32,000 nt of DNA from Candidatus Baldrarchaeota archaeon (GCA_019056805.1 DXJG01000004.1:1-32000); one strand, 5' to 3'; numbered from the stretch's first letter, positions 1,626 to 24,939 are shown. The notes: generated from the letters alone by a model not told the origin. Made by a program: numbers and translations.

Positions 1626-1628
1626 GTA

Positions 1629-2666
1629 GTGGTTGTGGTTTTAATTGATGAACCTGGATCTTTCTTGGGGAAGAAAAGTAAAAGAATTGTGATAAAGAGA
1701 CCTCAGAAGAAGCCAAGAGAAATACCAGTCGTCAAGATTAGTGAGGTTATTATCTCTACTAAGGCTTCACTTAGCACTGACGCAATAAGACTTCTCGCAA
1801 ACAACAACATTCCCATATTGTTTATTGGTAGGTATGGTCCAGTTGCTTTATTACATCCCTTTTTCATGCATGGAACTGTTTTAACCAGAAGAGAGCAAAT
1901 GAAAGCCCATGATGATTGGAGAGGTCTTCACCTAGCTAAAAGTTTTGTTAAGGGAGGAATGATAAACAAAGCAAGATTACTACAATACTTTGCGAAAAGT
2001 AGGAAGAGGACTAATGAGGAACTTGCATCTAAGCTTGTTAAAATATCTGAAGAAATACTTTTGAAAGTTGAGAAAATTGAAGAATTGGACGGACTACTTT
2101 GGGATGTTAGATATAAACTTATGGGTTTAGAGGGAGAAGCAACGCACATATATTACGAAGGATTAGCTATGCTTATCCCTAAGGAGTACGGATTTAAAGG
2201 AAGGGAAAAGAGGCCTCCTACAGATCCTGTAAATGCTGCTTTAAGTTTTGGATATACAATTTTGAATGGCAGAGTTTTATCAGCAATTGCTAGATGCGGT
2301 CTTGAACCTTTCGCTGGTTATCTTCACACTGATAGGAGTGGGAAGCCTAGTTTGATTCTTGATCTTTCAGAAGAATTTAGACAACCCATAGTGGATAGAA
2401 CAGTAGTTTCAATTTTTTCGAAAAGACAATTAAACAATGAAAGTGAATTTACGTGGGAAGGTGGAAGAGTCCTTTTCTCCGAAGAAGGAAAGAAAAAATT
2501 CCTTGAGGCATTAGAAAAACAATTTCGATCATTCACAAGGACACCTACTGGTGCTAAAACAAGCATGGAAAAAGCAATATTCCACCAAGCTAGAAACATG
2601 GTACGTTTTCTTTTAGGTAGAATCGCAAGTTATGAACCTTATATATGGAAATGGTGGGATACCTAA
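1629..2666 (+). CDS. cas1: CRISPR-associated endonuclease Cas1
   Basis: Motifs LMGLEGEATHIYY, DPVNAALSFGY, GLEPFAGYLH, LDLSEEFRQPIVD; GTG start with GGGAGG RBS. Confidence 0.98.
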   Translation: MVVVLIDEPGSFLGKKSKRIVIKRPQKKPREIPVVKISEVIISTKASLSTDAIRLLANNNIPILFIGRYGPVALLHPFFMHGTVLTRREQMKAHDDWRGLHLAKSFVKGGMINKARLLQYFAKSRKRTNEELASKLVKISEEILLKVEKIEELDGLLWDVRYKLMGLEGEATHIYYEGLAMLIPKEYGFKGREKRPPTDPVNAALSFGYTILNGRVLSAIARCGLEPFAGYLHTDRSGKPSLILDLSEEFRQPIVDRTVVSIFSKRQLNNESEFTWEGGRVLFSEEGKKKFLEALEKQFRSFTRTPTGAKTSMEKAIFHQARNMVRFLLGRIASYEPYIWKWWDT

Positions 2667-2948
2667 ATGCCCCTCTGCATAGTAACCTACGATGTACCAA
2701 GTGATAGTTTACGAACACAAATTGCACATAAATTACAGGATTATGGTTTAGATAGGTTACAATTTAGTGTTTTCCATGGATTTCTAACTAGAAATAGAGC
2801 TGAGGAACTAGCTTTAGAACTTAGAGAGCTTATAGGGGAAGATGAAGCTGATGTAAGAATATTTTTCCTATGTGAAAAATGTCTAAGAAAAACGATTATA
2901 GTTAAAGAAAGATATCCTCTAGAAGCCGTGGAGGCTGTAATAACTTGA
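2667..2948 (+). CDS. cas2: CRISPR-associated endoribonuclease Cas2
   Basis: 93 aa with IVTYDVPSD, RLQFSVF and DVRIF motifs; immediately after cas1. Confidence 0.97.
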   Translation: MPLCIVTYDVPSDSLRTQIAHKLQDYGLDRLQFSVFHGFLTRNRAEELALELRELIGEDEADVRIFFLCEKCLRKTIIVKERYPLEAVEAVIT

Positions 2949-3541
2949 ATAAACCTGTTAATGTGAAGTTAAAGCCTATTTTTACAGCTGAAGACATAAG
3001 ACAGTACTTTTACTGTCCTCGAATAATATACTTTAGATACGTACTAAGAGCAAGAGTAAGTGAAACCGTAAAAATGAGAAAAGGCAGAGAAATTCACAAA
3101 GAAAAATACAGATCTAAAAAAATTGAAATAGATGGTGAAAAACAAAAATATTTTAATGTATATTTGTTGTCCGAAGAATATGGATTAGCAGCTTTGATAG
3201 ATCTCCTTATTTACGATGGCGAAAATATAGATGTCGTTGAAATAAAATCTAAAAAGACTGGAAATTTCAAATTTCTAAAACATCATAAAATGCAACTAGT
3301 TGCACAAGCAGTCCTAGCTGAAAAAGAACTAAGGAAAAATGTCAGAAAAATCGGTGTACTTTACGATGATGTAGATAAAATAACATGGTTCGAAATAAAT
3401 GATTCAGACAAGTTGGAAATTTTTGAAACACTTAAAAAAATAAATGAGATCGTGATTTATGAAAATATTCCAAATCCAGCAAAGAATACAGCTAAATGCG
3501 TAGATTGCGAATATAAGTATTTGTGCGAAGACGCAACTTAA
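2945..3541 (+). CDS. cas4: CRISPR-associated exonuclease Cas4
   Basis: QYFYCPR plus C-terminal KCVDCEYKYLC (four Fe-S cysteines); RecB-like motifs LIDLL, VVEIKS, QLVAQA; TTG start overlapping the cas2 stop. Confidence 0.96.
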   Translation: MNKPVNVKLKPIFTAEDIRQYFYCPRIIYFRYVLRARVSETVKMRKGREIHKEKYRSKKIEIDGEKQKYFNVYLLSEEYGLAALIDLLIYDGENIDVVEIKSKKTGNFKFLKHHKMQLVAQAVLAEKELRKNVRKIGVLYDDVDKITWFEINDSDKLEIFETLKKINEIVIYENIPNPAKNTAKCVDCEYKYLCEDAT

Positions 3542-3594: not shown

Positions 3595-4266
3595 TTAGTT
3601 TTTCTCATAAGAAGTCTTACTTGATTTTTCTGTTAAAGCCAATGCTAGGGGTCTTAACTTATATTCAACTCTTCTGCCTGTTTTTCTCTCTATCACATAT
3701 CCTTTTTCTATTAATCCTCTAATTCTTTTGAATAGCGTTGCTTTGGGTATTTCTAATTCTCTGCTTAGTTCTGAAAGTGTGTAATGTGGAAATTCCCGTA
3801 GAACTCCTAATAATTTGATCTCAGTGCTAGTTAACGGTTTTAACACGAACAGTTCTATCGGAAAACGGACTGGTTCTGCTAGATTCTCGGGATATAGCTC
3901 TAGATATATTTTGTAGGGTGGAAAAACGTATAATACGGCAGCTAGGGTTTCTAGTATTAGTAGCCTCATTCCCCCGCTAAGATTCACGTAAACATCCTCC
4001 GTTTCTCTATATTCGAAAAGTTTCCTAACGATGTCTCCTATGGCTTCTTCTGGATTTGTAACGTCAACTTTCAATACGGTTATTTGTACGTCTTCAAAAA
4101 ATCGAGTAATGAAGTTTCTAAATTCATCTTCTGCGCGTTTTGACTTTTCATCTTCCTGTAAGGGTTTTAGAATTAGAACGTGGTCTCCAACCTTTGGCGT
4201 GGTCTTCATAACTCCCTTTATTTGAAATTTAACATCATAACCAAGAGTTACTATTAAAAGTTTCAT
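3595..4266 (-). CDS. csa3: CRISPR locus transcriptional regulator Csa3 (CARF plus C-terminal wHTH)
   Basis: N-terminal TLGYDVKF, CARF motif VNLSGGMRLLIL, C-terminal HTH LSELSRELEIPKATLFKRIRGLIEKGYV. Confidence 0.9.
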   Translation of the reverse strand: MKLLIVTLGYDVKFQIKGVMKTTPKVGDHVLILKPLQEDEKSKRAEDEFRNFITRFFEDVQITVLKVDVTNPEEAIGDIVRKLFEYRETEDVYVNLSGGMRLLILETLAAVLYVFPPYKIYLELYPENLAEPVRFPIELFVLKPLTSTEIKLLGVLREFPHYTLSELSRELEIPKATLFKRIRGLIEKGYVIERKTGRRVEYKLRPLALALTEKSSKTSYEKN

Positions 4267-4267
4267 G

Positions 4268-5026
4268 TTAATCTACCCTGATGTTATTTAAGAATTCCAT
4301 AAGTTCATTTCTAGCATCTAAAATATCATCAGGATGCGGAAGATCTCTAAGAAAGATTGGCATCCATCCTGCATCTTGGCAGTTACCTCTATTTTTTGAA
4401 GCGGTTATATTATCACATAAAGTTAAAATTCTCAGAAAAATTATTGTATTTAAATAAAGATTTAACCCCTTTTTGAAGCTTTTTAACCTGTCATCAAGTT
4501 GTTTAACTAATGGAACTATATCTTCGTTGAATGTTAGAGAGTTTGGAAGTAATTTTACATTTATTATGTTAATATTCCACTTCTTGCAAAGGTAAGAAAT
4601 CAAGCTTTTAAGGTCATTGGAGTTTCTCAAGTTTAATTCTTTTGGAGCCTTAAATTTATCCCAGGAGCGTATGTCTTTAATTAATCTCGGACCTCTCATA
4701 GCCATATGATGCCAGATTATTGATAATTGTATGGTATCTCTTAGGAAAATATCGATATTTAATAGCACTTTTCCAGCTATAGCAGCTGAGTAATATTCAT
4801 GTTTTGGAAAACCTCTATTGGTTTTAATTCTTTCCTGATATTCGTCGTATCCTTTTGCGACGTCATGAAGAAGTATCATTGCTTTTAGTGCTTCCTCTGG
4901 GTTTTTTATTCCTGTCCGCTTCTTTATAAATGTCATGTATTTTGTATTTACGAAGTATTTTTGAAATACCTCTATTCCTACATCTAAATGTTCGGAAAGA
5001 AGTTCACATTTAGCTGCTAACACCAT
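4268..5026 (-). CDS. cas3'': Cas3'' HD nuclease (split Cas3)
   Basis: Motifs EHL, LLHDVAK, KHEYYS, IIWHHM, LTLCDN; overlaps the cas3' stop. Confidence 0.93.
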   Translation of the reverse strand: MVLAAKCELLSEHLDVGIEVFQKYFVNTKYMTFIKKRTGIKNPEEALKAMILLHDVAKGYDEYQERIKTNRGFPKHEYYSAAIAGKVLLNIDIFLRDTIQLSIIWHHMAMRGPRLIKDIRSWDKFKAPKELNLRNSNDLKSLISYLCKKWNINIINVKLLPNSLTFNEDIVPLVKQLDDRLKSFKKGLNLYLNTIIFLRILTLCDNITASKNRGNCQDAGWMPIFLRDLPHPDDILDARNELMEFLNNIRVD

Positions 5027-6716
5027 ATGCCACCTTTTGGTAAAGCTTAGTGTCTATCTGAACTCCGAGAACGCCCAAATGAACCATATAAATTTCAGGA
5101 AAAGTTAAAGTTAGCATTTTTTTCAGAGTACTATAATCATCAATCGACATAATTGTTCTCCCCTTGTAAACAAGTAATTTAACGTCGCCTGTTTGTAATA
5201 AACGTTTTATAAACCTTATTGTGGCAGGAAATCCAAATTTTGAGAGATTTTTAATAAATTCCCTTTCTTCGAGATTTAATTCTTCGTTCCATACAAGGAC
5301 ATTAATAAGTTTTGCTTCCCTAATAAAGCCTTCTCCAAGAACTTCGATGATAGCATCTTTAGAACTGGAAAAAGGATTTAACATGTGCCTTATTTTGCTG
5401 GGTTTTGGGAACATCTTTTCGTGTACATACACCCTATCTATTAATTCTTGATAACCCAGTCCTTCCTTAGTTCTAGGGATTCTCCACCAAACAGTATTCT
5501 CTTTTTCTAAAATTTTTAATGTGTTCAGCGTTAAGTCTAATGAATAGACGTGATATTTATCGCTGAAATTGTTGAAACTATTTTTGTCAAGTAAAATAGT
5601 AATTTCTCCAAATTCTTCTTCAAATCTCGCAACTCTGCCAGCGCGTTGAACTAAAGAGCTAGCTGGAGCTATATCTGTTATTAATATCTGAGCTGATATA
5701 TTTACCCCAGCTTCTATAACCTGAGTAGAGACTATTATCCATTCGTTTTCCTTTAAACGTTCTATAGCACGTTCTTTATCTCTCGAAGTTAACTTTCCGT
5801 GAAGGAGAATGGGCGATAAACCCTTGCGGATTAGGGCATTATAAACTCCTATAGCTCTATCAACTTTATTTAAAACAACAAGAATCCTTTCATAACTACC
5901 ACTTTTCTCTAAAACCTTTTCAACAATCGAGGTTATTTCATTAACTTTTTCTATTCTAGTTTTTATTTTCTTCCCTCTTTCTATTGCCTCAAACTCCGGA
6001 TCTTTATAAGTTTCCCCATATATAATATTTGAGTAGGCAGTACCTGTGCAATTACTCACATTGATCATAAAGTCTCTCAGGAATTTAGGAAAAGTAGCTG
6101 TCATTATTATTGTGGGTATTTTACTCCATGCTAGGAAGAAAAGTAGAGACGCTAAAGCGTCACGAGAAGAGGGTGAATCAAGAAGAATCTGGGGCTCATC
6201 TAATATTACTGTTGATTCCAGTATTGCGCCTCGTGATACTTCGTAATGTCCGTAGTTAGTCCATTCACTACTACGAATTATCTTAGTGGCTTCGGCTGGT
6301 GGAAATTTCATCAAGTGCATTGAGAATGTATCGAACGTGGTGAATATAAGGAGCTTGTTAAGGAAGGGACTGCCTGGAACGTACATCATTTGTTTTGCCG
6401 TTAATTTCAATACTTTCGATAAACCTATGTTCTTAATATTACCAATAAAGTTGGAGTAGGCGTCTTCAATAATACTTCTAAGGGGAAGGACATGTATTGT
6501 TCGTATACTGTTCTCCGGGTTAAGGATATTGTAAAGGCCAAGGGAGTAAACTATAGAGGTTTTTCCATAGCCAGTAGGTAACTGTACTGCAAGCATGTCT
6601 CCCTTAAAGTTTTCCAATACCGTTGGAATAATTTGGCGTTCACTACGCTTCGAGTAGAATCCGGACAATACCAGTGATTTATACACATCAGATGGACTAA
6701 TCTGATAACGCATCAT
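5010..6716 (-). CDS. cas3': Cas3' SF2 helicase
   Basis: Walker A LPTGYGKT, motif II ILDEPQ, MTAT, LLHGK, STQVIEAGVNI, QRAGRVAR. Confidence 0.96.
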   Translation of the reverse strand: MMRYQISPSDVYKSLVLSGFYSKRSERQIIPTVLENFKGDMLAVQLPTGYGKTSIVYSLGLYNILNPENSIRTIHVLPLRSIIEDAYSNFIGNIKNIGLSKVLKLTAKQMMYVPGSPFLNKLLIFTTFDTFSMHLMKFPPAEATKIIRSSEWTNYGHYEVSRGAILESTVILDEPQILLDSPSSRDALASLLFFLAWSKIPTIIMTATFPKFLRDFMINVSNCTGTAYSNIIYGETYKDPEFEAIERGKKIKTRIEKVNEITSIVEKVLEKSGSYERILVVLNKVDRAIGVYNALIRKGLSPILLHGKLTSRDKERAIERLKENEWIIVSTQVIEAGVNISAQILITDIAPASSLVQRAGRVARFEEEFGEITILLDKNSFNNFSDKYHVYSLDLTLNTLKILEKENTVWWRIPRTKEGLGYQELIDRVYVHEKMFPKPSKIRHMLNPFSSSKDAIIEVLGEGFIREAKLINVLVWNEELNLEEREFIKNLSKFGFPATIRFIKRLLQTGDVKLLVYKGRTIMSIDDYSTLKKMLTLTFPEIYMVHLGVLGVQIDTKLYQKVAYGVSS

Positions 6717-7908
6717 AAATACCCTTCAACAAGTCATTATATTTTAATGGTGATTTTTCAGGAGTAATTCTAGCCATTAAGTAGACTAATTCCTCGGGCC
6801 TACGAGAACCCACTATGGATTGATACAGAAGTTGTGTTATACGATAACATGTCATGTAGTCGCCATACATTCTCGAACAGTAGTCTTGTTTCCCGCTTGA
6901 AAGTCTTATAGTACAGAATAAGAAATTTATTAGTATATTTAGTACTCTTTCTGGATCATTTGTACAATTGGCCAGTTTGTAGGCAAATTTCATTACAGGC
7001 TCCACATTAATGCCTATTTTTTCAAGCATAGTGAAAGATTTTCCTGTATAAAGTATCCTGATAACATTGTAGGAAGGTATCTCAAGGATCCCCTTTTCAT
7101 GATAATCTAAATATGTTTGAAGACCTAAAAGCAAAATATAGGCTACTACTGGTGAAGGTCGTACCCTAACTTTGGAGATCACATTATATATTCCTTTTTC
7201 TCCATAGAAGGCTTTGCTGACCCTCCCTTCTCCCGTTAAAACTTTTACATGTTCTTTGAAATTGTAATCTTCCAAAGCTTTTATGAAAACGGATTCGGGT
7301 AACGGAGACAAAATTATTTCTCCACCAGCGTAATAACCGTAGCTGAGCGAAAATCCAGCCAATACTAATGCCATCCACTCCCTGCTCATTTTATAGTCAA
7401 ATTTAACGGTAAAAGTTCCAAATCCCTTTCCGTATTCATATTTTTCTATTTTAAATGGCTGGAGGTTTGTATACTTTCCATCTCCAAGTTTAATATTATC
7501 TCCCTTCACCTTAATTATCGAAAGTTGGTCTATCCATCTTTCCCCATTTTTAACGATATCATCTTTAGCCCATTGAATCATGTATTTAATATATGAAAGA
7601 TAATCCCCATTGGGGACTTGTATACCTACTGCTTCAAATATTTTATTTAATGTTTGTTTGTCGTTTTTATGAATACCAGGAAAATATACTCCTAACTCTT
7701 CTTTTAATGCAATATTTTTCAATGATGTTTCAAACATGTCCTTCAAAAATGATATAAAGAAATTTTCACTGGTTTCGACCACCAATTCGTTGCCATTATA
7801 TTTTACGTCCGCATTGAAATATTCATAATCAGTAAACACTGAAAGAGAGCTAATTACTAGATCTCTTACTATGGATCCCTCTGGGGGGATTATAATGACC
7901 CATTCCAT
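6697..7908 (-). CDS. cas8a: Type I-A Cascade large subunit (Cas8a/Csa4-like)
   Basis: About 400-aa ORF between cas5 and cas3' in canonical I-A order. The segment LQPFKIEKYEYG resembles Csa4/Cas8a2. Start placed at ATG 7908 (GGAGGT RBS); the ORF track extends it to 7923. Assignment is mainly by synteny. Confidence 0.75.
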   Translation of the reverse strand: MEWVIIIPPEGSIVRDLVISSLSVFTDYEYFNADVKYNGNELVVETSENFFISFLKDMFETSLKNIALKEELGVYFPGIHKNDKQTLNKIFEAVGIQVPNGDYLSYIKYMIQWAKDDIVKNGERWIDQLSIIKVKGDNIKLGDGKYTNLQPFKIEKYEYGKGFGTFTVKFDYKMSREWMALVLAGFSLSYGYYAGGEIILSPLPESVFIKALEDYNFKEHVKVLTGEGRVSKAFYGEKGIYNVISKVRVRPSPVVAYILLLGLQTYLDYHEKGILEIPSYNVIRILYTGKSFTMLEKIGINVEPVMKFAYKLANCTNDPERVLNILINFLFCTIRLSSGKQDYCSRMYGDYMTCYRITQLLYQSIVGSRRPEELVYLMARITPEKSPLKYNDLLKGIYDALSD

Positions 7909-7913
7909 AACTG

Positions 7914-8669
7914 TTACCTCCAAGGAACAATTATATCGTCTCCAGCTTCAAGGGCAGTATATTCATCTTTGAGTTCTACCTGAACTTTAGTACTTTCCAA
8001 GGCATCCCAATCGTATGGAAAGACTATGGGGATTTTAGGTGCCGAGGTATAATCTCCAATTGGAGTAGAAGTCCAATCTACTACATTAAAGATTGAAAAT
8101 ACTCCGTTTACTCTTTTTGAAGCTCTTAAAGGAAAATAGAAACTAGTTTCTACCGTCCTTTCTTTTCGATATTTAATTGTACCATACTCAACTTTACTAA
8201 CTGATACTATAGATTCCCGAGCCCCTATACGGCATATACTCCATGCTGAATATATAAGATTCTCGAGCCAGTCGTTACCTAGGAGTTTCTCGGCTACTTT
8301 ATCCTCGAAAATATATATGATTTCTAAACATCCCGTAGCTACCGTATAAATCTTACCAGTAGCTACGGCATCAGTAATGATACTTTTTTCTCTTAATTTA
8401 TAAGAAACTACTCTGCTTAAATCATTATATTCAAGTAATGGGATATCCACTTTCAGATGTATGTTCCTAAATAATTTTCTTATTCTTTCGGCGCTACTGT
8501 ACTCTCCATACACTTCACCTTTGTTGAGATTAAGACCGTAAGCCAGTGCTCCGATTAAAGTCGTGGGGGGTATTATTTTAAGAGCTGGTCTAGACTTGGT
8601 GAAACCATGATAATTGAGCAAGAATCCCCAGTGAGGTCTTAAAAAAATTTTAAGGTAGTAAAGCGCCAT
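7914..8669 (-). CDS. cas5: Type I-A Cas5
   Basis: RPHWGF and IIPPTTLIGALAY motifs, C-terminal G-rich RIGARES loop; ATG 8669 preceded by GAGGAGG. Confidence 0.93.
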   Translation of the reverse strand: MALYYLKIFLRPHWGFLLNYHGFTKSRPALKIIPPTTLIGALAYGLNLNKGEVYGEYSSAERIRKLFRNIHLKVDIPLLEYNDLSRVVSYKLREKSIITDAVATGKIYTVATGCLEIIYIFEDKVAEKLLGNDWLENLIYSAWSICRIGARESIVSVSKVEYGTIKYRKERTVETSFYFPLRASKRVNGVFSIFNVVDWTSTPIGDYTSAPKIPIVFPYDWDALESTKVQVELKDEYTALEAGDDIIVPWR

Positions 8670-8679
8670 AAAACCTCCT

Positions 8680-9768
8680 CTAGACACTTAAGAGGTCAAA
8701 AAGTTTTACAAATGCTTCTTCTGGTGTTTTAACTTTCTCTACCATCTTGGGTAACTCGATCTCTTTACTGTATGCTATAATTTTAGTGTTCGGCTGAATT
8801 CCTAGCTTTCTTAGCATGTCTTCATAAGATTTAAGTCTACTAACAGTATCTTCTATGAAGTTAGGCCATTGAGGCGGTGAAATCGTAAATGGTTTACCTT
8901 TACTTGCTACAATGGCAAGACTTAGAATATCGCTTATAGGCTGAAACCTTGTTCTTTTTGCTCCGTAAGTCATGCCCGTAATTACTTGGGCCAATGCTCC
9001 AATTGCAACCTTTATTCTTCTTTTTCTTTCGTTCTCATCTACAGCATCTTCCACTTTTATCATACTGGTTCTTCCTATTCCATCTAGATTTATATTAAAT
9101 GATAGACCGTAAATGGCAGAGGCAGTCTCTATATAATATATCATTTGAGCTTGTCTTTCTGTTTGTTCACTCTCGGTCTGTCCGCTTCCAGATTGCTCAC
9201 CCTTTAATGTTTCACTCGCTACATGTCTGACGTGAAATTGGGATTCTATTGCAGTAGCTTCAAGAGTATCGTACGTTGGTATAATGTACCCCACCTGAAA
9301 TATTGAGGTACGTTTTACGGGAAAATCTTCGGCAATCATAAAGCCACCTATGTCAGCGACAAGGCTAAGCTTAATCGCTGTTTTTTCGATTTCATGTTTC
9401 AATGTTAAGATGTTTTTGACATCTTTCTTCTTTTTTAATTCCTTATTTCGTTCAAAGAGACTAAGAAGCTCAGGAGGCATGTGTTTTTTATCGCCAAATT
9501 TAAATAGTTCACCCCTAAGAGCCCATTCATCTATGGGGGGCTCTTTACCATAGATAAGCTTGGCAACTTCGGTTAAAGCAACTTGATAAGCGTGAGCAAA
9601 GGATTCACCACTTATGGCTGGAACGTATACTATCCTATATTGGTCACCCTTTTTTATCACGATAGGCGCTCTTCTATGTTTAGTTAAGTTGCCAACAGAC
9701 TCAACCATGTTCAAGGCTTCAATATTTGATAAAAATCTAACACCAACCGAGATAAACATACCCATCAC
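8680..9768 (-). CDS. cas7: Type I-A Cas7 (Csa2/DevR)
   Basis: Motifs EALNMVESVGNLTKHR, VPAISGESFAHAYQ, DIGGFM, VKRTS, YGAKRTRF. True start may be ATG 9765 or 9759. Confidence 0.96.
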   Translation of the reverse strand: MMGMFISVGVRFLSNIEALNMVESVGNLTKHRRAPIVIKKGDQYRIVYVPAISGESFAHAYQVALTEVAKLIYGKEPPIDEWALRGELFKFGDKKHMPPELLSLFERNKELKKKKDVKNILTLKHEIEKTAIKLSLVADIGGFMIAEDFPVKRTSIFQVGYIIPTYDTLEATAIESQFHVRHVASETLKGEQSGSGQTESEQTERQAQMIYYIETASAIYGLSFNINLDGIGRTSMIKVEDAVDENERKRRIKVAIGALAQVITGMTYGAKRTRFQPISDILSLAIVASKGKPFTISPPQWPNFIEDTVSRLKSYEDMLRKLGIQPNTKIIAYSKEIELPKMVEKVKTPEEAFVKLFDLLSV

Positions 9769-10119
9769 CTATCCTAAATCTTTTTCTGGCAAAGTTAAAG
9801 CAAGGGCTGCAAGAATACTGGCTACACTTAAATCCCTGCTAATAAGCTCTACTACTTTCTGAACCACGTTTGCCGATGGTAAATGAACTTTTTCATTTTG
9901 ATCAAATGCGGATCGGGCCTCCCTAAGAACTTCTCTGATAGTTATTTCAGCTATTGTGGGATTGTATGCGTTGGCTAATCGATCTATGTAACCGTATTTC
10001 CTTGATCTAGCAAAGTATCTTAAGGTGCGAGCAAAATCTTTTATAGCATCCCATTCTTCTTTAGATAGACGATGTAATTCCTCCTGCACTTCTCTCTCAC
10101 CATATTTTAAATGTTGCAT
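9769..10119 (-). CDS. csa5: Type I-A small subunit Csa5 (Cas11)
   Basis: About 110-aa helical protein directly upstream of cas7 with a YGYIDRLANA motif. Alternative GTG start at 10089 with a GGTGA RBS. Confidence 0.85.
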   Translation of the reverse strand: MQHLKYGEREVQEELHRLSKEEWDAIKDFARTLRYFARSRKYGYIDRLANAYNPTIAEITIREVLREARSAFDQNEKVHLPSANVVQKVVELISRDLSVASILAALALTLPEKDLG

Positions 10120-10833: not shown

Positions 10834-11640
10834 TCAAGTCGTTCTGTTTTCCTGCATGTTTATTTTTGTTACTCCCATTCCTTGTGCTCTGTGTGCTCCC
10901 GTGTTTGCGTACTCTGCGTACTTTGTTAGTATTGTTGTCCATTTTGCGTATCCGCTTTTTGGGTTTTTTATTATGTACTCTATTTTTCCTTTGTATCCTG
11001 TTTGTTTTGTATCTTTTATTTGGACTTCTCTTGTTCCTCCTCTAAAGGATTTTATGTACATGTTTTTTAATGTCCACGTTTTTAGTTCCTCTAGATCTAT
11101 TTTGTAGGGATGAAACATGTTCCATATTCTTGCTAGATTTGTGTAGAGTAGGTGGGGTAGGGGGAAGGGTAGGTATGCTTCTGCTTCTTTCCATCGAAAA
11201 TGGGTTGGGGTTAAGAATTCTATTTGTATTTTTGTGGTTGCGGGTGCTTCTTTTAATAGGGTCTCATAAGTTTTCGATTCTATTTGTATTTGTAATATGT
11301 TGAATGATATTTTTCCAATTTCTATTTGTTGAGTTTCTACGATTGCTTCTGTTGTTGTTTTTGCTAGTTCTTCTGTTAAGGTATTTATGGCGAAACTGTA
11401 TCGTTTTCCTTCTTCTATTATCCATTTCTCCTCTAATATCTTCTTTTTTCCTTGAAGAGGTTTTAATGGTTGTACCGCGTAGGGTCTTAGAGCGTTTTCT
11501 TGGTGTAATTTTTCTGCTAGTTGTTTGTCTTGTTTTGCTATTATGTTTAAGAATAAGGCTTGTATTTGTGGTCCCGTGAAGGGATTTAGAACCCCTTTTT
11601 TTGTTGCCATAACTTGGAAGGTAAATTTACATACTTTCAT
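10834..11640 (-). CDS. cas6: CRISPR repeat-processing endoribonuclease Cas6
   Basis: LH...RPYAV, FLTPTHFR, PLP, GYKGKIEY and C-terminal G-rich loop GAHRAQGMG. Confidence 0.95.
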   Translation of the reverse strand: MKVCKFTFQVMATKKGVLNPFTGPQIQALFLNIIAKQDKQLAEKLHQENALRPYAVQPLKPLQGKKKILEEKWIIEEGKRYSFAINTLTEELAKTTTEAIVETQQIEIGKISFNILQIQIESKTYETLLKEAPATTKIQIEFLTPTHFRWKEAEAYLPFPLPHLLYTNLARIWNMFHPYKIDLEELKTWTLKNMYIKSFRGGTREVQIKDTKQTGYKGKIEYIIKNPKSGYAKWTTILTKYAEYANTGAHRAQGMGVTKINMQENRTT

Positions 11641-11673
11641 TTTAATCCTCTTTTATGAGGAATTCTTTGATGT
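11639..11673 (-). repeat. Solitary degenerate CRISPR repeat overlapping the cas6 RBS and start codon
   Basis: Minus strand ACATCAAAGAATTCCTCATAAAAGAGGATTAAAAT versus repeat CTTGCAGAGAAATCCTCATAAAAGAGGATTGAAAG: 27/35 identical, with an 18-nt exact core at 11644-11661, in the same orientation as the array. Confidence 0.9.
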
Positions 11674-11729: not shown

Positions 11730-13301
11730 TTAGGGTATGAATTCGTGTAGGTACGTTTTTGTTTGTTCTTTTTTGTTGATTGTTCGAGTTGTGGTCTTCC
11801 GTTTGTTTATTTGTTTTCTGATTTCTATTGTTGTGAGGTGTTTTGTTTTTCTTGGTCTTATTTGTGTTATTATTGGGTATTTTGCTGTTACTCCTGTTAT
11901 TGCTGCGGTTCCCGTCGGTAGATAGGGTATTCTTTGGAAGTCTTCTGCTGTTGTGTAGTCTATGTAGGGTCTTATGTAGTCTAGGTCTGTTTTGCTGTCT
12001 ATTCTTAGGATTATTTTTGTTCCGCATTGGCTTATGACGTCTTTGTCTAGTCCTACTATTCTTTGGCTTGTTATGCATAGTCCTATCCCAAATTTTCTCC
12101 CTTCGCGTGCTATTTTCCTCATTATTGTTTTGCTGTATGTTTCTTCGTCTTGTGGTGCAAATCTATGGCTTTCTTCTACTACAACCATTAGGGGTGGTAT
12201 TTTTTCTTCTTTTCTAGCGTTAAAGAGTTCATTTAGCAGCGATCCTACGAATATTCTTCTTATATGTTCTTCCATTTCTTCACTTACATCTATTATTGTT
12301 AGTTGTCTTGGTTTGACTATTTCTTCTGGTTTAAGTCCCTTTCCAAATATTCCTATTTCTTTTAGGATGCTTATTCTTCGTTTTAGGGATAGTTGGGTGC
12401 TTCTGGCGAATCCCCATTCTCTAGCTATTTTTTCTACTTCTTGTAGGAGGGTTTCTGGGTCTATTGTTTCTATTTGTTTTTCTTTTAGTGACTTCATTGC
12501 TAGGTATAGTAGGTCTTTCATTACTGTTGAGAGTTGGCATATTTCTGCCATTGCATCAGCGTTTAGTGAGTTGAAGTTTAATGTTAGTTCCCCAGTTCCT
12601 TGGTAGACTGGTGATAGAATTTTTACATTGTAGGTTTTTGGGTTGAGATTTAATTCTTTTAGTCTTTCTAGGTCTTCTTTTTCATCATTTTGATACTGGA
12701 ATGTGTAGTATTCCCCGTGGGGGTCAATGACCACTACTGGGAAGTTGTGTTCTAATAATTCTTCGATTAGGACTCCTACCGTGTAGGATTTTCCTGTTCC
12801 TGTTGCCCCTAGTATAGCTATGTGTAATCTTACTAGTTTTTCTATGTCTAGTTTTACTTTTATTTCCGGATTTCCATACATTGTACCTATGAATGCTCCA
12901 TCTTCTTTTAGTCCCATTAGTTTTGTTAGTATGTTTTTGTCTGCTTTGTAAACTCTTTCTCCCGGTTCTGGAGCAATGTTTGGTGGGTGTATTTTTTCTT
13001 CTTCGAACATTCCTACGATTCTTACCTCGGCGGCTCTCCATCTTCCAATGTTTACTGGGAATCTCGCTGTTACTGGGAGTTGTTTGAGCAGGTGGTCTCT
13101 TACGAATTCAGGATTTTTAAAAAATTGGTTAAAGGCTTTTACTTCAGTGATTCTCCCTATTATTACGTATTTTCCAGCTGGGACTTCAACGTACTCTCCA
13201 ACTTTAATATCTTTGTCTTCCGCTATTTGGAATGTGAATTTTAGATGTGTTGGAGGGCCTTCTCTACTAATAATTATTCCGATTTCATTCTTCTTCTCCA
13301 T
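11730..13301 (-). CDS. herA: HerA-family ATPase/helicase with N-terminal HAS barrel
   Basis: Walker A HIAILGATGTGKS, VIDPHGEY, Walker B VVVEESHRF, REGRKFGIGL...SQR. Start placed at ATG 13301 (GGAGAG RBS); the ORF track extends it to 13355. Confidence 0.93.
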   Translation of the reverse strand: MEKKNEIGIIISREGPPTHLKFTFQIAEDKDIKVGEYVEVPAGKYVIIGRITEVKAFNQFFKNPEFVRDHLLKQLPVTARFPVNIGRWRAAEVRIVGMFEEEKIHPPNIAPEPGERVYKADKNILTKLMGLKEDGAFIGTMYGNPEIKVKLDIEKLVRLHIAILGATGTGKSYTVGVLIEELLEHNFPVVVIDPHGEYYTFQYQNDEKEDLERLKELNLNPKTYNVKILSPVYQGTGELTLNFNSLNADAMAEICQLSTVMKDLLYLAMKSLKEKQIETIDPETLLQEVEKIAREWGFARSTQLSLKRRISILKEIGIFGKGLKPEEIVKPRQLTIIDVSEEMEEHIRRIFVGSLLNELFNARKEEKIPPLMVVVEESHRFAPQDEETYSKTIMRKIAREGRKFGIGLCITSQRIVGLDKDVISQCGTKIILRIDSKTDLDYIRPYIDYTTAEDFQRIPYLPTGTAAITGVTAKYPIITQIRPRKTKHLTTIEIRKQINKRKTTTRTINKKEQTKTYLHEFIP

Positions 13302-14748
13302 TTTTAATTCTCTCCCATCTTTTTTCATCTCTTTCTTCTTGTAATTGTTGTACATAGTCTTGAAAGACTGCTTTTAGTACTCCTTCTATTGATCTTCTTA
13401 GTTGACCTAGGTTTGAATAGGCTAATGCTTGAGCTGTACTGACTATTCCTGGTCCAGGTGGGATTCCTGGTGCTGGTGGTACTATTGCTGATGAGTATGC
13501 TAGGTCTCTGATTTTTTCATATTCTTCCCACGGATCTTTTTGAGATATGAAATCGAATCTGACGATGTAATTTCTATATTTTAGATAAAATTCATACCAG
13601 TCTTCCACGGGGGGTCTACCTTTCTCACGTTCTCTTTCTATTAAGCATGTGGTGTCTCCATCATCTAAAATATTTAGTAAAAAATTCATGTCGTTTGTTT
13701 CGGCAACTTTGAACTTTAATAATCGTTCTGCATGTTTTAAAAATATGTTATCCGTTGGAAAAGCTGTTACACCAACAACAAGTATTTTTCGTTTTTTCGC
13801 TTCTCCTACGAGTTTATAAAATAGTTCGTGACATTTATCTCTAATTAGTACTAGTTTCTTTGCTTTGACTACGAATCCATGTGGAACTAAGGTTCCCATT
13901 CTAAAATAAATATCGAACTTGTCTCCATGTTCCTCTATTGTTTTAATATCGAGTTGGTAGTGTAAAATTTCTTCTAGGTATCTTGCTGCTATACTTCTGC
14001 CTACATGTAGTAGTTCTGGGAAGTCTGTTGATAACTCGTAGAAAGGTTCTCCAGGCAGAAAAGGCTCTTTACCTCTAAATGATATAAGTTCTGGCACAAC
14101 CCTACTATCTGACCTATATTGATTTAGTATGTTTTTTTCATAGTAGCCTATGTAGCATCCTGCACTAAGATAAACTACAGATAAAACTGCAAAGTAATGT
14201 GCTCCATAATTGTTAATGTTGCGGCAGGAAGCTGATCCTGGAACATAAATATCATCTAAAGCTATATTTCTAGCTGATTTTTCATATATTAGCTTTTCTC
14301 CTATAAGCGGGCCGTATCTTCCATCTATTTTAGTCTTTCTCACTTTTTCTCTTATTTCTCCTGAAAACGCTAATTCTAGATTCAGTTTTTTGAAAATACG
14401 TTTTACTTTGTTTTCTAGAGTCTTTGCTCCTAATACTGTTTGTATGTATCCTGGATTGATGAAATCATCAAGCTTAAGTTGTATATATGGGCCTAGAGCT
14501 ACTTCTTTTAATACTTCATTTACCCATTCCTTGTTTACTGTATATTTTCCAGTACCAGCGTAATTTAGGATGCCAAGTGTGAGTAGGTCGTTTATGTAGT
14601 CTCTGATAGCTCTCTCGGTTAGTCCTGTTTCTTCGGCAAGTTTATGGACATCTATATATCCTTCTTTTGCTTCGATTTCCATGCATATATTGATTAGGAA
14701 AGTTATCCGAGCTCTGTAGGTAGCTGGTACTTTACCCATATAAAGCAC
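13285..14748 (-). CDS. N-terminal wHTH fused to a NurA-like domain with apparently degenerate catalytic motifs
   Basis: wHTH segment IDVHKLAEETGLTERAIRDYINDLLTLGIL. NurA-like spacing of IYVPGSAS, IYFRMGTL, LVVGVTAF, NDMNFLLNILDDG and PGIVSTAQALA. Overlaps the start of herA. Start is GTG 14748 or ATG 14739. Confidence 0.6.
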   Translation of the reverse strand: MLYMGKVPATYRARITFLINICMEIEAKEGYIDVHKLAEETGLTERAIRDYINDLLTLGILNYAGTGKYTVNKEWVNEVLKEVALGPYIQLKLDDFINPGYIQTVLGAKTLENKVKRIFKKLNLELAFSGEIREKVRKTKIDGRYGPLIGEKLIYEKSARNIALDDIYVPGSASCRNINNYGAHYFAVLSVVYLSAGCYIGYYEKNILNQYRSDSRVVPELISFRGKEPFLPGEPFYELSTDFPELLHVGRSIAARYLEEILHYQLDIKTIEEHGDKFDIYFRMGTLVPHGFVVKAKKLVLIRDKCHELFYKLVGEAKKRKILVVGVTAFPTDNIFLKHAERLLKFKVAETNDMNFLLNILDDGDTTCLIEREREKGRPPVEDWYEFYLKYRNYIVRFDFISQKDPWEEYEKIRDLAYSSAIVPPAPGIPPGPGIVSTAQALAYSNLGQLRRSIEGVLKAVFQDYVQQLQEERDEKRWERIKNGEEE

Positions 14749-14756
14749 CTATGTTA

Positions 14757-14780
14757 GGAAATATATTTCCGATATATAAA
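14757..14780 (-). promoter_or_regulatory. TATA box (TTTATATA, 14773-14780) and perfect 14-bp palindrome GGAAATATATTTCC (14757-14770)
   Basis: Read directly from the sequence. The TATA box lies 25-32 nt upstream of GTG 14748 and the palindrome sits between them. Confidence 0.65.
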
Positions 14781-15676: not shown

Positions 15677-17611
15677 TTAAGTCAAAAGCTTTCTTTTTTC
15701 TAATTCATTTGCTACATCTGACAATTCTAGTTTTTCCAAAGACTCCCTTGTAAATAAACCTGTTTTTTTGTCCCATCCCCTTAATTCGTAGTATTCGTCA
15801 AGCATGATATCGAGGGGACATGTGTGTCCTTTTGCTGGGCCTTCTGGCATTGGTTCTTTGAGGAATCTTTCTGGTAATGTATCATCCTTTCTATTTAGTC
15901 CCTCTCTAACATTGAATGCTTTTCTTAAAGTAGATATTCTAGCACCAACCTTCTTAACATATTCAATATCGCTATATTCTTTAATTCCTGTGAGTGCTGG
16001 AATTATTTTGGCAAAGTCGTCCCAATAATAGATGGGAGGCCACATGGTACCGTACTTACAAATTATTAGAGAATCTACAATTGCATATAAATCCTCTAGG
16101 TCTAAGACGACCATTGCTTTATATTTTGGTGACCTAAGATTCATAATCTCTTCAGCTTTATCACTACCATATCTTTCCGCAGCAACATCAGGATAGCCTA
16201 ACTCTTCGTAGCAAGACAAGCTTCTAAGGTGATCTGCTCCTCTAACATTAACAGCGTAGGTTAATCCAACACTGTACTGTCCTCTTGGATCCTGACCGGA
16301 ACATTCTAGACCTTTAACATGAAGAGCATATTTCTCTGCCCCTTTTCCAATTTTCTCGGCAGCACGTTTTACTCCCTCAGCAAGTAGGTTGCCAAATCCT
16401 TCACGTTTTGCAATCTTGTGAATTAATTGAATTTCAGATTCAGCATTACCCCATGTTAAATCTAAACCATCAGTGTCTTCCTTAGTTATAATTTCATGTT
16501 CATAGCATTCCATAGCGAAAGATATGACTTTACCAGTAGAAATAGTGTCCAAACCATACTCGTTACAGAGCATATTGGCATGTAAAACAGCTTCAATATC
16601 TGAGACCATACAATTAGAACCTAAAGCAAAGATACTTTCATATTCTGGGCCTCCAGAAAGCGTACCCTTATAAGGTCCACTAGGAACATGTGATATAAAC
16701 TTACATTGAATTCCACATGAGAAACATGATTCACGACTTGTACGATACTTCTTTCTTATAGTTTCACCACTAATTTTATCAGCATCTTTAAAGGTACCCG
16801 TCCAATGATTTTTAGTTGGAAGTCTACCAATTTCATTCTCCAATTCTACAAGACTTGGAGTACCGGTCTTTCCAAGACTTTCTTGAGCCATTAATCCAAG
16901 TTTACTTTTAGTTTCCCTTTCCAAACCATCAACTGCCAATTCAAAAAACTTATCTGGATCAGCAACAGTAATACTCCTCGTTCCTCTTACGGTTATGGCT
17001 TTGAGGTTTTTTGATCCCATTACTGCGCCCATACCAGTTCTACCAGCAGCACGATAAAAATCAACAATAACACAAGCAAATCGAACCTTGTTTTCCCCTG
17101 CAGGACCTATACATGCCACTTTAATACTATCGTCCCCTAATTCCTCTTGAATGCTTTTAGTAGTTTCTCTAGTAGTTTTACCCCAAAGATGAGAAGCATC
17201 TCTCAGCTCTACATAATCATCATCAATGTAGAGATAAACTGGTTTCTCAGCCTTTCCCTCAAAAACTATCATATCATAGCCTGCATATTTAATTTCAGGG
17301 CCGAAATGACCACCACAATGAGCTTCTCCCCAAATTCCCGTGAGAGGGGATTTCGCTGCAACCATAAATCTTCCTGAAGGCGGAAAGAACGTACCGGTAA
17401 TCGGCCCTGTAGCAAAAACCAAAACATTATCTGAACCTAGAGGGTCAATTCCGGGTTTAACTCTATCCCATAGTATTTTTGCAGCAAAGCCCGTTCCACC
17501 TAAATAGGCCTTTGCAAGTTCTTTCGGAAGAATTTTCTTAACGATTTTTCCTGTAGTTAAGTTAACTTCGAGGTACTGACCTGCATATCCTTTATACGGA
17601 AACTCGCTCAT
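15677..17611 (-). CDS. aor: Aldehyde:ferredoxin oxidoreductase family tungstoenzyme (paralog 1)
   Basis: KSPLTG, CIGPAGEN, AAGRTGMGAVMGSKNLKAI, CFSCGIQC, GPEYE, YGLDTIS, RGADH, DDTLPERF. Confidence 0.95.
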   Translation of the reverse strand: MSEFPYKGYAGQYLEVNLTTGKIVKKILPKELAKAYLGGTGFAAKILWDRVKPGIDPLGSDNVLVFATGPITGTFFPPSGRFMVAAKSPLTGIWGEAHCGGHFGPEIKYAGYDMIVFEGKAEKPVYLYIDDDYVELRDASHLWGKTTRETTKSIQEELGDDSIKVACIGPAGENKVRFACVIVDFYRAAGRTGMGAVMGSKNLKAITVRGTRSITVADPDKFFELAVDGLERETKSKLGLMAQESLGKTGTPSLVELENEIGRLPTKNHWTGTFKDADKISGETIRKKYRTSRESCFSCGIQCKFISHVPSGPYKGTLSGGPEYESIFALGSNCMVSDIEAVLHANMLCNEYGLDTISTGKVISFAMECYEHEIITKEDTDGLDLTWGNAESEIQLIHKIAKREGFGNLLAEGVKRAAEKIGKGAEKYALHVKGLECSGQDPRGQYSVGLTYAVNVRGADHLRSLSCYEELGYPDVAAERYGSDKAEEIMNLRSPKYKAMVVLDLEDLYAIVDSLIICKYGTMWPPIYYWDDFAKIIPALTGIKEYSDIEYVKKVGARISTLRKAFNVREGLNRKDDTLPERFLKEPMPEGPAKGHTCPLDIMLDEYYELRGWDKKTGLFTRESLEKLELSDVANELEKRKLLT

Positions 17612-22971: not shown

Positions 22972-24882
22972 TTGTATAAAGGAGGATATAAAGGTAAAAT
23001 TCTCAGAGTAAATCTTTCAAAAAACGAAATTAAAATTGAACCCCTGTCTAAAGAGCTTGTACGAAATTATATCGGCGGCTCAGGATTCGCTGCCAAAATA
23101 CTATATGATGAAGTAGGACCTGAAATCGATCCACTAAGCCCAGATAACGAATTAATTTTGGCAACAGGTCCTTTAACAGGAACCTTATGGCCAACTACAG
23201 GACGTATCATGTTTGCATCTAAAAGTCCTCTTACAGAAATTGGGGGCGAAAGTCACGTAGGAGGATTTCTAGGTCCAGAACTAAAATTTGCAGGTTATGA
23301 CATGATAATAGTTAAAGGGAAAGCAAAATCTCCTGTTTATCTATACATAGAGGACGATATCGTAGAGTTAAGGGACGCTAAGCATCTATGGGGTAGCGAT
23401 ACTCATGAAACTACTAAAATAATTCAAGAAGAAAATGGAGATCCTGAAATTCAAGTAGCCGCCATAGGCCCAGCAGGAGAAAATCTAGTTCTCTACGCTT
23501 GCATTATAATTAATCTTGCTCGTGCTGCTGGTAGAACTGGTATGGGCGCAGTAATGGGATCAAAAAACCTCAAAGCCATAGCCGTAAGAGGAACAGGTAC
23601 CGTTGAGGTTGCAGATTTCGAAAAATTCATGGAACTCGCTGAAGAGGCCCATGAAAGAATAGATAAAAATCCCCAAGCAAGAGAAATGACAAAATACGGA
23701 ACACCACTTCTTGTAGCATATAAACAAGAGATTGGAGAACTACCAACCAGAAATCACCAAACAGGCGTATTTAATGAATGGGAGAAACTCTCAGCAGAAA
23801 CCCTTAGAGAAAACTACTGGGTTAAAACCCGAGCCTGCTTTGGATGTAGCATAGCATGCAAGAAAGCCTTTAAAGTTACTGAAGGACCATATGCTGGAAC
23901 TTTTAGTGAAGGACCAGAATACGAAGGACTCTATGCTTTTGGAACCAATTGCGGAAACCCTGATTTCGGCTCTATTCTCAAAGCAAATCTCCTATGTAAC
24001 AAATATGGCATAGATATTATTTCAGCTGGAGCAACCATAGCTTTTATGATGGAACTCTATGAAAAGGGAATAATTAGTAGAGAGGATGTTGAAGGCTTAA
24101 ACTTCACCTGGGGAAATCATGAACTTATTGTTGAACTTCTTCCAAAAATTGCTCATAGAGAAGGCATAGGAAACTTACTGGCTGAAGGAACATATAGAAT
24201 AGCTAAAAAAATAGGAAAAAACGCCGAGAAATATGCAATTCAAGTTAAAAAGTTAGAGATGTCAGGACAAGATGGTAGAACTCATAGAAGCATAGCGCTT
24301 GGACATGCAACAGCCGCTAGAGGAGCAGATCACCTTAGAAGTTTAATAACAGTTGATCAATTAGGATATGAGGAAATAGCAAAACAAAGATTCGGAGAAG
24401 ATAAATTACCAGAAATATGTAATCCATATACTGAGAAGTATAAGGCTTACGCCACAAAAATTACAGAAGACGTTTACGCAATAAGAGATGCACTAATAGT
24501 TTGCTGGTATAGTTGTGCTTGGCCACCCATATTTTGGATAGAAGATTTCGCACAAATATTACCCATAGCTACAGGAATAAAAGAATTTGGAAGCATAGAG
24601 GAACTGTATAAGATCGGTGAGAGACAAGTAACCCTAAAAAGAGCCTTTAACGTCCGTGAAGGCATAAGAAGAAAAGACGATACATTACCAGAAAGATTCC
24701 TCAAAGAACCAATGCCAGAAGGCCCAGGAAGAGGACAAGTCGTTAATCTTGATGTTATGCTTGATGAATACTACGAGTTAAGAGGATGGAACAAAGAAAC
24801 AGGAATACCAACAAAAGAAAAACTTAAGGAACTCGGTCTTAACTTTGTTATTAACGACTTTGAAAAACGAGGAATTCTATAA
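22972..24882 (+). CDS. aor: Aldehyde:ferredoxin oxidoreductase family tungstoenzyme (paralog 2)
   Basis: Same AOR motifs: AAGRTGMG, CFGCSIAC, GPEYE, RGADH, DDTLPERF; TTG start. Confidence 0.95.
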   Translation: MYKGGYKGKILRVNLSKNEIKIEPLSKELVRNYIGGSGFAAKILYDEVGPEIDPLSPDNELILATGPLTGTLWPTTGRIMFASKSPLTEIGGESHVGGFLGPELKFAGYDMIIVKGKAKSPVYLYIEDDIVELRDAKHLWGSDTHETTKIIQEENGDPEIQVAAIGPAGENLVLYACIIINLARAAGRTGMGAVMGSKNLKAIAVRGTGTVEVADFEKFMELAEEAHERIDKNPQAREMTKYGTPLLVAYKQEIGELPTRNHQTGVFNEWEKLSAETLRENYWVKTRACFGCSIACKKAFKVTEGPYAGTFSEGPEYEGLYAFGTNCGNPDFGSILKANLLCNKYGIDIISAGATIAFMMELYEKGIISREDVEGLNFTWGNHELIVELLPKIAHREGIGNLLAEGTYRIAKKIGKNAEKYAIQVKKLEMSGQDGRTHRSIALGHATAARGADHLRSLITVDQLGYEEIAKQRFGEDKLPEICNPYTEKYKAYATKITEDVYAIRDALIVCWYSCAWPPIFWIEDFAQILPIATGIKEFGSIEELYKIGERQVTLKRAFNVREGIRRKDDTLPERFLKEPMPEGPGRGQVVNLDVMLDEYYELRGWNKETGIPTKEKLKELGLNFVINDFEKRGIL

Positions 24883-24939
24883 TAACTTCCAAATCTATCT
24901 GCTAAGCTATTATCTTTAATGTGAATGTAAATTGTAAGG

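Follow-up and report, generated by a model that had tools for sequence, protein, structure and literature searches.

In a stretch of 32,000 nucleotides (nt) from a Candidatus Baldrarchaeota archaeon (GCA_019056805.1 DXJG01000004.1:1-32000; the whole stretch is called the window below), we found a minus-strand gene whose product belongs, on the evidence of its fold and of profile comparisons, to the NurA superfamily, bears an N-terminal winged helix and has lost the catalytic residues of NurA nucleases. This gene, referred to here as dead NurA, is followed by a gene for a HerA-family ATPase with intact motifs, and the pair is embedded in a type I-A CRISPR-Cas locus. A short palindrome was located both at the promoter of dead NurA and at the promoter of the adaptation operon, DUF2797-cas1-cas2-cas4. 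We give a probability of about 60% to the reading in which a nuclease-dead NurA ring, bound to this operator via its winged helix, partners an active HerA and is tied to spacer acquisition.

A winged-helix NurA without the NurA active site

The open reading frame (ORF) of dead NurA runs for 487 codons from a GTG at 14748 to the stop codon at 13285. The real start is almost certainly the ATG at 14739, because a Shine-Dalgarno sequence (AGGTG, 14750-14746) sits before it; this ATG yields the same 484-aa protein (P0003) as public databases hold. Pfam gave only weak matches to HTH_Mga and HTH_11 within residues 27-60, and its NurA model (PF09376) had no match to the protein at E <= 0.01, the gathering score of the model not being reached. 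When the same genome was searched with PF09376, two other, canonical NurA genes matched at ~1e-18 and the dead-NurA gene was missed. Both canonical genes adjoin a HerA, and because these two ordinary Pfam-positive NurA genes are found elsewhere in the genome, the CRISPR-linked pair is an extra, specialised one beside two ordinary NurA-HerA pairs. Profile searches against the sequences of the PDB returned winged-helix proteins only and no NurA.

Twelve full-length homologues (40-57% identity) were aligned, coming from Asgard and related archaeal metagenome-assembled genomes and all of them unnamed or 'hypothetical'. A profile search of 1.84 billion protein representatives found 90 proteins, 27 of them below 1e-30, and the tail of the family-profile matches consisted of Pfam-positive NurAs of 330-385 aa (E 1e-13 to 1e-3). 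The comparison by hhalign of 29 family members with 39 Pfam-positive NurAs gave a probability of 99.96% (E 4e-38) over residues 107-476. A first AF2 model from 12 sequences, with a predicted local distance difference test score (pLDDT) of 67.7 and residues 165-228 unmodelled, was superseded by a model from 80 sequences (pLDDT 91, predicted template modelling score 0.88), whose top Foldseek match was the S. solfataricus NurA (2ygk_A, E 5.7e-9). Structure comparison with VIA aligned 280 residues of the region 107-470 with another chain of that NurA (2ygk_B) at Z 21.5 and a root-mean-square deviation (rmsd) of 3.9, Z values of 13-14 being reached by NurA chains from complexes of T. kodakarensis, D. 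radiodurans and TdpAB (9x1l_G, 7f6d_G, 8wet_G) and of ~10-11 by more distant neighbours, EndoV and PIWI domains. Residues 9-73 were aligned with the winged helices of IdeR, PefI and IclR (Z 10-11, rmsd 1.6-1.8). Sequence-profile methods alone thus missed the link to NurA, whereas hhalign and the fold search recovered it, and a prediction made earlier from this DNA (the original prediction), which had proposed a NurA-like, RNase H-like fold with a winged helix-turn-helix added at the N-terminus, was borne out on both points.

The N- and C-terminal helical extensions by which NurA forms rings were kept in the model; the prediction of a two-copy complex scored 0.08, a value informative neither way on dimerisation. 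In the alignment of the 12 homologues the winged helix was one of the best conserved parts of the protein, with R46 and Y51 (plus L55) of its recognition helix, ERAIRDYINDL, being invariant. The most conserved block of the family, EPFxPGEPFYExSTDFPELL (residues 227-247, ~14008-14070 on the minus strand), is an insertion with respect to NurA, located between strand 3 and helix alpha-1 and modelled with a pLDDT of 63-68; it could be a partner-binding or channel element. Family searches gave no Csa3 or CARF match for the protein, which has no sequence similarity to the Csa3 of the window. PADLOC found no NurA-type match for dead NurA and was equally silent on the true NurA P0050, so that its result is uninformative.

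In S. solfataricus NurA, D58, E116 and D133 are catalytic and K202 and Y298 are essential neighbours (Blackwood et al., PMC3326311). The corresponding columns were compared in an alignment of 80 sequences between 30 representatives of the target family and 38 true NurAs, for which MAFFT and hhalign gave the same register. Dead NurA reads A173, H263, M284 and Q440 at the D-E-D-D columns, and [EK]DSR reads A-F-P-T within GVTAFPT. Acidic residues occupied the four catalytic columns in 0/30, 0/30, 4/30 and 7/30 members of the family, as against 37/38, 38/38, 32/38 and 36/38 true NurAs. At motif I (G-[VI]-D-G-G) the Asp is replaced by A, S, F, Y, C, V or T; the Glu of R-x-x-x-E by H (20 members), R (4), Q (3), K (2) or L (1); the Asp column of D-G-S-L-x-P-H is highly variable (3 D and 1 E), and that of the C-terminal E-A-D is variable as well. 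In the [EK]-D-S-R motif after strand 5 (the K202 region), of which D, S and R are each present in 37/38 true NurAs, the family reads x-x-P-x. The loss of the catalytic residues is a family-wide pattern, far beyond chance, and not the accident of a single sequence, and the protein most likely no longer cuts DNA. The original prediction had named all recognisable catalytic residues as replaced, which is real and extends to the family, with M284 (in RMGTL) and Q440 (in TAQ) at the positions claimed; its register was off at motif I, where A173 in G-S-A-S and not the P of VPGS is the residue concerned, and the Glu column, H263, had been overlooked.

Residues of the NurA scaffold were kept, namely G171, G285-[ST]-L-x-P-H-G, G326, D353, [DE]365, T367, Y-x-F-Y and P433; D353 is invariant in both the family and the true NurAs, and the ND..LL..L..G block persists as had been proposed. 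The family has also gained invariants of its own (R251, R256, D333, N334, R372, E375 and E386, plus the conserved insertion). In a midpoint-rooted FastTree phylogeny of 321 columns, of which support values were not inspected, winged-helix NurAs reading D-H-D-D were basal and the fully degenerate forms were a single clade.

The D-E-D-D residues could have been replaced by another catalytic or metal site (e.g. H263, H290, D333/N334 or E386), the pair degrading DNA like an ordinary HerA-NurA. Such a rebuilt nuclease seems quite improbable to us: H263 does lie in the exact column of the catalytic Glu, which is His in 20/30 representatives and also in the basal D-H-D-D forms, where it coexisted with three acids, and H290 and D333 are invariant or nearly so, but the same column holds R, Q, K or L in 10/30 members, the columns of motifs I and III are small or hydrophobic and highly variable, the near-universal DSR motif of NurA is lost as well, and no RNase H-fold nuclease is known to function without the first-strand Asp.

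A 550-aa winged-helix NurA with D-H-D-D was found together with a HerA at 6118-9337 of a contig (L031) from a Joint Genome Institute metagenome. The contig is virus-like, with major capsid, cement and DpdA (7-deazaguanine DNA modification) genes alongside, and it is possible that this form is a viral ancestor or counterpart of the dead clade.

A palindrome at the dead-NurA and adaptation promoters

The sequence 5' of the dead-NurA gene reads TTTATATA-TC-GGAAATATATTTCC-TAACAT-AGGTG-CTTTAT-ATG. The second element is a perfect 14-bp palindrome with the 12-bp core GAAATATATTTC; it is a candidate operator, located 2 nt downstream of the first, TATA-like element (14780-14773) and 17 nt upstream of the ATG. 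A second copy, GAACTATATTTC, with one mismatch, precedes a TATA-like TTTATAA by 6 nt and the first adaptation gene by 46 nt. We found GAAATATATTTC, often as the whole GGAAATATATTTCC, with <= 1 mismatch at 15-40 nt upstream of the start codon of dead NurA in 13 of 15 sequences, the upstream regions outside the palindrome being unalignable between lineages. The same motif was present just upstream of DUF2797-cas1-cas2-cas4 in all the sequences holding this operon (7/7, window included), and 20 of the 22 matches with <= 1 mismatch in 206 kb corresponded to dead-NurA or DUF2797-cas1 promoters. These loci represent at least five GTDB families and are partly close relatives or duplicates (L010 and L016; L011, L012 and L014), so the counts overstate their independence.

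The perfect 14-mer occurs a single time in the 1.92-Mb genome, and the exact 12-mer once or twice per genome. In G002 the sole exact 12-mer precedes DUF2797-cas1 by 37 nt, and the dead-NurA/herA pair is found on another contig. Two other exact 12-mers, inside ORFs (G000 C9:557884 and G001 C1:1519253), are probably due to chance. When upstream regions were taken for all the DUF2797 homologues found in 400 genomes, at the same cut-off of <= 1 mismatch, the motif was present at 10 of the 11 loci from genomes with dead NurA, the exception having two mismatches, and at just one of the 18 informative loci from genomes where dead NurA was not found; its presence tracks that of dead NurA at comparable divergence of DUF2797 (E 1e-19 to 1e-31). 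The single genome with the motif and without the gene (G288) is 90% complete, and a congener carries dead NurA. In G082 the dead-NurA and DUF2797 genes are divergent, with an intergenic region common to both. The proposal that the protein serves as a DNA-binding regulator or adaptor, already contained in the original prediction, gains independent support from this conserved palindrome, which precedes both the gene and the adaptation operon and co-occurs with the gene across genomes.

A chance match in AT-rich DNA was considered and rejected, since exact and one-mismatch copies are nearly confined to the two promoter classes and the 14-mer is unique in the genome; at <= 2 mismatches, the number of motifs in the window equals the shuffled expectation.

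The complete Freyarchaeota chromosome (G001) has both palindrome sites and no Csa3 (searched as TIGR01884 and Pfam Csa3_N). Because both sites are kept there without Csa3, the winged helix of dead NurA itself is most likely the binder of the palindrome, being the most economical candidate, and a NurA-type dimer would present two winged helices to it. Csa3 is for the same reason less likely as the binder, and remains a candidate where it is present. The intergenic region that a distant group of winged-helix/dead-NurA proteins of 540-555 aa (P0041, L032) shares with the adaptation operon contains no GAAATATATTTC; the operator is thus a feature of the core clade only.

Two further observations concern the motif. 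The 12-mer at G000 C9:557884-557895 (L035 3885-3896) is the only other exact GAAATATATTTC in that genome, and the 379-aa ORF containing it is flanked by an N-terminal fragment of Cas6 (111 aa) and by a CARF protein that stands alone (176 aa; HFX_2341_N / Csa3_N); the region may be a second, degraded CRISPR-related neighbourhood, or the match may be chance. Upstream of P0010 from Njordarchaeales (L015, ~9930-9960) there is no GAAATATATTTC and a different, 16-bp palindrome, GTTATTTTTAAATAAC, lies ~40 nt upstream of the start. P0010 is also the only one of the 12 aligned proteins with Asn for Asp at D50 of the recognition helix, and operator and recognition helix may have co-varied in this one case (n = 1).

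HerA and the gene neighbourhoods of dead NurA

The HerA of the window has an intact Walker A (GATGTGKS), Walker B (VVVEESH), arginine in EGRKFG and SQR sensor, which match those of the canonical HerAs of the genome, including the EE[AS]H of Walker B; the adjacent active motor that had been proposed is thus supported by its motifs. The likely start of herA, preceded by GGGAGA, gives a 17-nt overlap with the end of the dead-NurA gene, stop codon included, which suggests translational coupling. Features of the window are listed in Table 1.

Table 1. Positions of the features identified in the window
Feature	Position	Strand	Remarks
CRISPR array end	1-253	.	Repeat units, 75-79 nt period
Palindrome, second copy	659-670	.	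Adaptation-operon promoter
Adaptation operon	717-3541	+	DUF2797-like, cas1, cas2-sized ORF, cas4; palindrome upstream
DUF2797-like gene	717-1625	+	Weak Pfam match, 2.8e-5
cas1	1629-2666	+	
cas2-sized ORF	2667-2948	+	Called by size, without family search
cas4	2945-3541	+	
csa3, cas3'', cas3', putative cas8a, cas5a, cas7/csa2, csa5	3595-10119	-	Type I-A interference genes and regulator
cas6	10834-11640	-	Directly downstream of herA
herA-family ATPase gene	11730-13301	-	523 aa from ATG 13301; Pfam DUF87 (2.5e-39), HAS-barrel, NCBIfam HerA
Dead-NurA gene	13285-14739	-	ATG start, 484 aa; winged helix and NurA fold, predicted nuclease-dead
NurA / RNase H-like domain	13339-14430	-	Residues 107-470
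Winged helix-turn-helix domain	14530-14724	-	Residues 9-73 (P0001 numbering)
Palindrome, 14 bp	14757-14770	.	Candidate operator at the dead-NurA promoter

The relatives of dead NurA adjoin I-A, I-B or III-B cas genes. In L002 the gene has a III-B cmr cassette with csx1/csx3 on one side and a I-A module on the other, in L003 it precedes DUF2797-cas1-cas2-cas4-cas8b-cas7-cas5-cas3, and in L008, L010, L011 and L016 it is a few kb from DUF2797-cas1. The Njordarchaeales locus (L015) has the order csa3, PglZ, dead NurA, herA, cas6, the last three genes being in the same order as in the window. The family was found in 20 of the 400 genomes of the window's GTDB phylum and in 12 of its 85 genera, and was not found in three other genomes of the window's own genus, a patchy distribution that is typical of defence-linked modules. 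The genome of L009 (G002) was placed by the genome search in the phylum of the window, and all the core-family members studied here may be from Asgard archaea.

It could be argued that dead NurA is purely a transcription factor, with the NurA fold acting only as a scaffold for dimerisation or ligand sensing and HerA as an unrelated neighbour. The winged helix, the conserved operator and the apparent loss of catalysis would all agree with this, and yet HerA directly follows dead NurA wherever a retrieved locus reaches beyond the gene, in proteins of 32-57% identity and with frames often overlapping or abutting, the ring-forming helical extensions of NurA are retained in the model, and NurA-type residues off the active site (D353, D/E365, T367 and YxFY) are still invariant, so that we hold it to be very improbable.

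HerA pairs with many effectors across anti-phage systems, and that of the window matches the PADLOC and NCBIfam models for HerA_antiphage. The two genes could accordingly constitute a self-contained module for defence or DNA transactions which rides in defence islands beside CRISPR-Cas and has no tie to adaptation, the winged helix binding substrate DNA or another protein and the palindrome being bound by Csa3 or some other factor. This we regard as unlikely. The same palindrome is found at both promoters in at least five GTDB families, its copy at the adaptation operon tracks dead NurA (10/11 against 1/18) and is kept in a complete genome without Csa3, and the order dead NurA, herA, cas6 is recurrent; pointing the other way are the family members without cas genes in their retrieved flanks, the related D-H-D-D form on a virus-like contig, and the presence in the window of Csa3, which binds palindromes upstream of the adaptation genes of Sulfolobus (PMC5587795).

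Several other observations were made in these neighbourhoods. A DUF2797-like protein is the consistent first gene product of the cas1-cas2-cas4 operon in the window, L002, L003, L008, L010, L011, L016 and L034, its gene being apparently split into two ORFs in L002; in Sulfolobales this operon position is held by Csa1/Cas4'. Directly downstream of herA, a degenerate sequence resembling a CRISPR repeat (11633-11673; 68% identity with the repeat of the array) extends over the start of cas6. The window also has two paralogues of 636 aa resembling aldehyde:ferredoxin oxidoreductase (22972-27360), 2.47 kb apart and with DNA stretches 72-73% identical (repeat families D1, D5 and D10), and a third such oxidoreductase at 15677-17611, beside a 4Fe-4S protein.

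Proposed role and relation to known systems

According to the role we propose, a winged-helix member of the NurA superfamily, devoid of the metal-binding D-E-D-D site and of [EK]DSR and most likely unable to cut DNA, would be made together with an intact HerA from overlapping genes, and by homology it would assemble into a ring of the NurA type, which would dock on HerA and thread DNA. The mutation D58A of NurA shifts the Sulfolobus HerA-NurA in vitro from a DNA shredder to an ATP-dependent unwinder or translocase (PMC3326311), and the natural dead NurA is expected to make a similar machine of its pair with HerA. Its winged helices would bind GAAATATATTTC at its own promoter and at that of DUF2797-cas1-cas2-cas4; since the palindrome marks both promoters, dead NurA would autoregulate and at the same time co-regulate the spacer-acquisition genes, and the function of the HerA/dead-NurA machine would lie in CRISPR adaptation, where it might for instance handle DNA ends, supply prespacers or sense ends. 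No sign of regulation is read from the placement of the site, which in the window is just downstream of a TATA-like element at the gene's own promoter and just upstream of another one at the adaptation promoter. The proposed role fits both the part in adaptation suggested in 2012 for CRISPR-linked NurA-HerA (PMC3396285) and the co-activation of adaptation genes and nurA/herA by Csa3a in Sulfolobus (PMC5587795).

A more specific form of this role, which we put forward as tentative and consider rather unlikely, is that the winged-helix/dead-NurA ring and HerA work as a transcriptional switch which senses DNA ends on behalf of CRISPR adaptation. In the resting state, a dimer would occupy GAAATATATTTC both at its own operon and at DUF2797-cas1-cas2-cas4. 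Once free ends arise, from viral DNA that is injected or from the products of Cas3 degradation, the ring and HerA would load on them, and the ring would leave the operators or, conversely, become activated, so that the acquisition genes would be on only in the presence of prespacer substrate; the motor may also supply unwound DNA to Cas4 and Cas1-Cas2.

Some points weigh against a nuclease-dead, operator-bound ring tied to spacer acquisition. The counts of co-occurrence involve related, non-independent genomes, and the palindrome, which is AT-rich and near TATA-like elements, might instead act as a special promoter element or be recognised by a different, co-inherited factor. The family has invariant polar residues of its own (H290, D333, N334, R251, R256, R372, E375 and E386, with H263 at the former Glu position), some of which may lie near the old active site, and in a few members one or two of the four acids persist. 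The equivalent of F300, by which the Sulfolobus NurA docks on HerA, is Gly in dead NurA, and the interface with HerA may differ from that of Sulfolobus. Finally, no cas gene was found in the retrieved flanks of the family members L001, L009, L017 and L033.

Dead NurA has in common with the canonical archaeal NurAs (S. solfataricus 2YGK, P. furiosus 3TAL and the T. kodakarensis HerA-NurA 9X1L) the RNase H-like core, the helical extensions, the adjacent herA and the non-catalytic motifs G-x-x-G, GS/TL-x-PH, D353, G-[DE]-x-T, YxFY and P433. It differs from them in the absence of equivalents of D58, E116 and D133, of the Asp of the C-terminal EAD and of [EK]DSR (K202 region), in the N-terminal winged helix and the conserved EPF insertion, in its location away from mre11/rad50 and in escaping detection by the Pfam NurA model. 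In kind, the pair belongs to the CRISPR-associated NurA-HerA accessory pairs, with whose published clusters it was compared by description only: the 'Cas NurA'/'Cas HerA' pairs (Bernick 2012, PMC3396285; Vestergaard 2014, PMC3973734; Shah 2019, clusters 57/58, PMC6546367) are likewise dedicated pairs within archaeal type I and III cas neighbourhoods. In contrast to these, no csm6 is found between dead NurA and herA, and whereas the Cas-NurAs of Pyrobaculum match Pfam NurA (E 1e-7 to 1e-16) and are described as nucleases (PMC3396285), dead NurA fails Pfam, has lost the catalytic residues and is fused to a winged helix.

Csa3a of S. islandicus is, like dead NurA, a winged-helix protein from a I-A locus with a palindromic site at the adaptation promoter; it binds a palindrome at the csa1-cas1-cas2-cas4 promoter and couples the adaptation genes with nurA/herA expression (PMC5587795). 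Csa3a senses via a CARF domain and regulates the housekeeping nurA/herA, whereas here the sensor or scaffold domain would be the dead NurA itself, whose operon also contains the gene for its HerA partner. The complex of NurA D58A with HerA, which in vitro unwinds DNA and migrates branches at the expense of ATP and does not degrade the DNA (Blackwood 2012, PMC3326311), is a parallel to the nuclease-dead ring with HerA that is predicted here; unlike that of the laboratory mutant, the loss described here is natural, ancient, family-wide and combined with a predicted sequence-specific DNA-binding domain. The inactive PIWI of the short prokaryotic Argonautes (SPARTA/SPARSA) also has an RNase H-type fold (Z ~10), has lost its catalytic tetrad and is kept as a nucleic-acid-binding sensor partnered with another enzyme. 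It belongs to a different family, dead NurA having no guide-binding MID domain and its partner being a hexameric motor and not a suicide effector.

CRISPR-linked NurA-HerA pairs have been catalogued since 2012 without a demonstrated function, and the remark of the original prediction that the architecture was not recognised among described CRISPR accessory modules holds in part, for the form which is both winged-helix-fused and catalytically dead. In the literature searched, no description of a dead-NurA clade or of a shared operator was found; a 2026 review states that Asgard NurA homologues, uncharacterised, 'retain the key catalytic residues', and makes no mention of dead forms or of a fusion with a winged helix (PMC13748450).

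With a nuclease half that is most likely dead and a motor that is apparently alive, degradation of DNA would not be the purpose of this clade. The protein carries its own DNA-binding domain and has a short, nearly invariant candidate operator in common with the cas1-cas2-cas4 operon. Like the short Argonautes, it is a natural case in which a nuclease of the RNase H fold has apparently become a module that binds nucleic acids without catalysis, and it adds an uncharacterised, unannotated family ('hypothetical protein' in all the records seen) to the defence repertoire of Asgard archaea. The clade offers a testable role for CRISPR-linked NurA-HerA and could show by what means spacer acquisition is controlled or supplied in some archaea.

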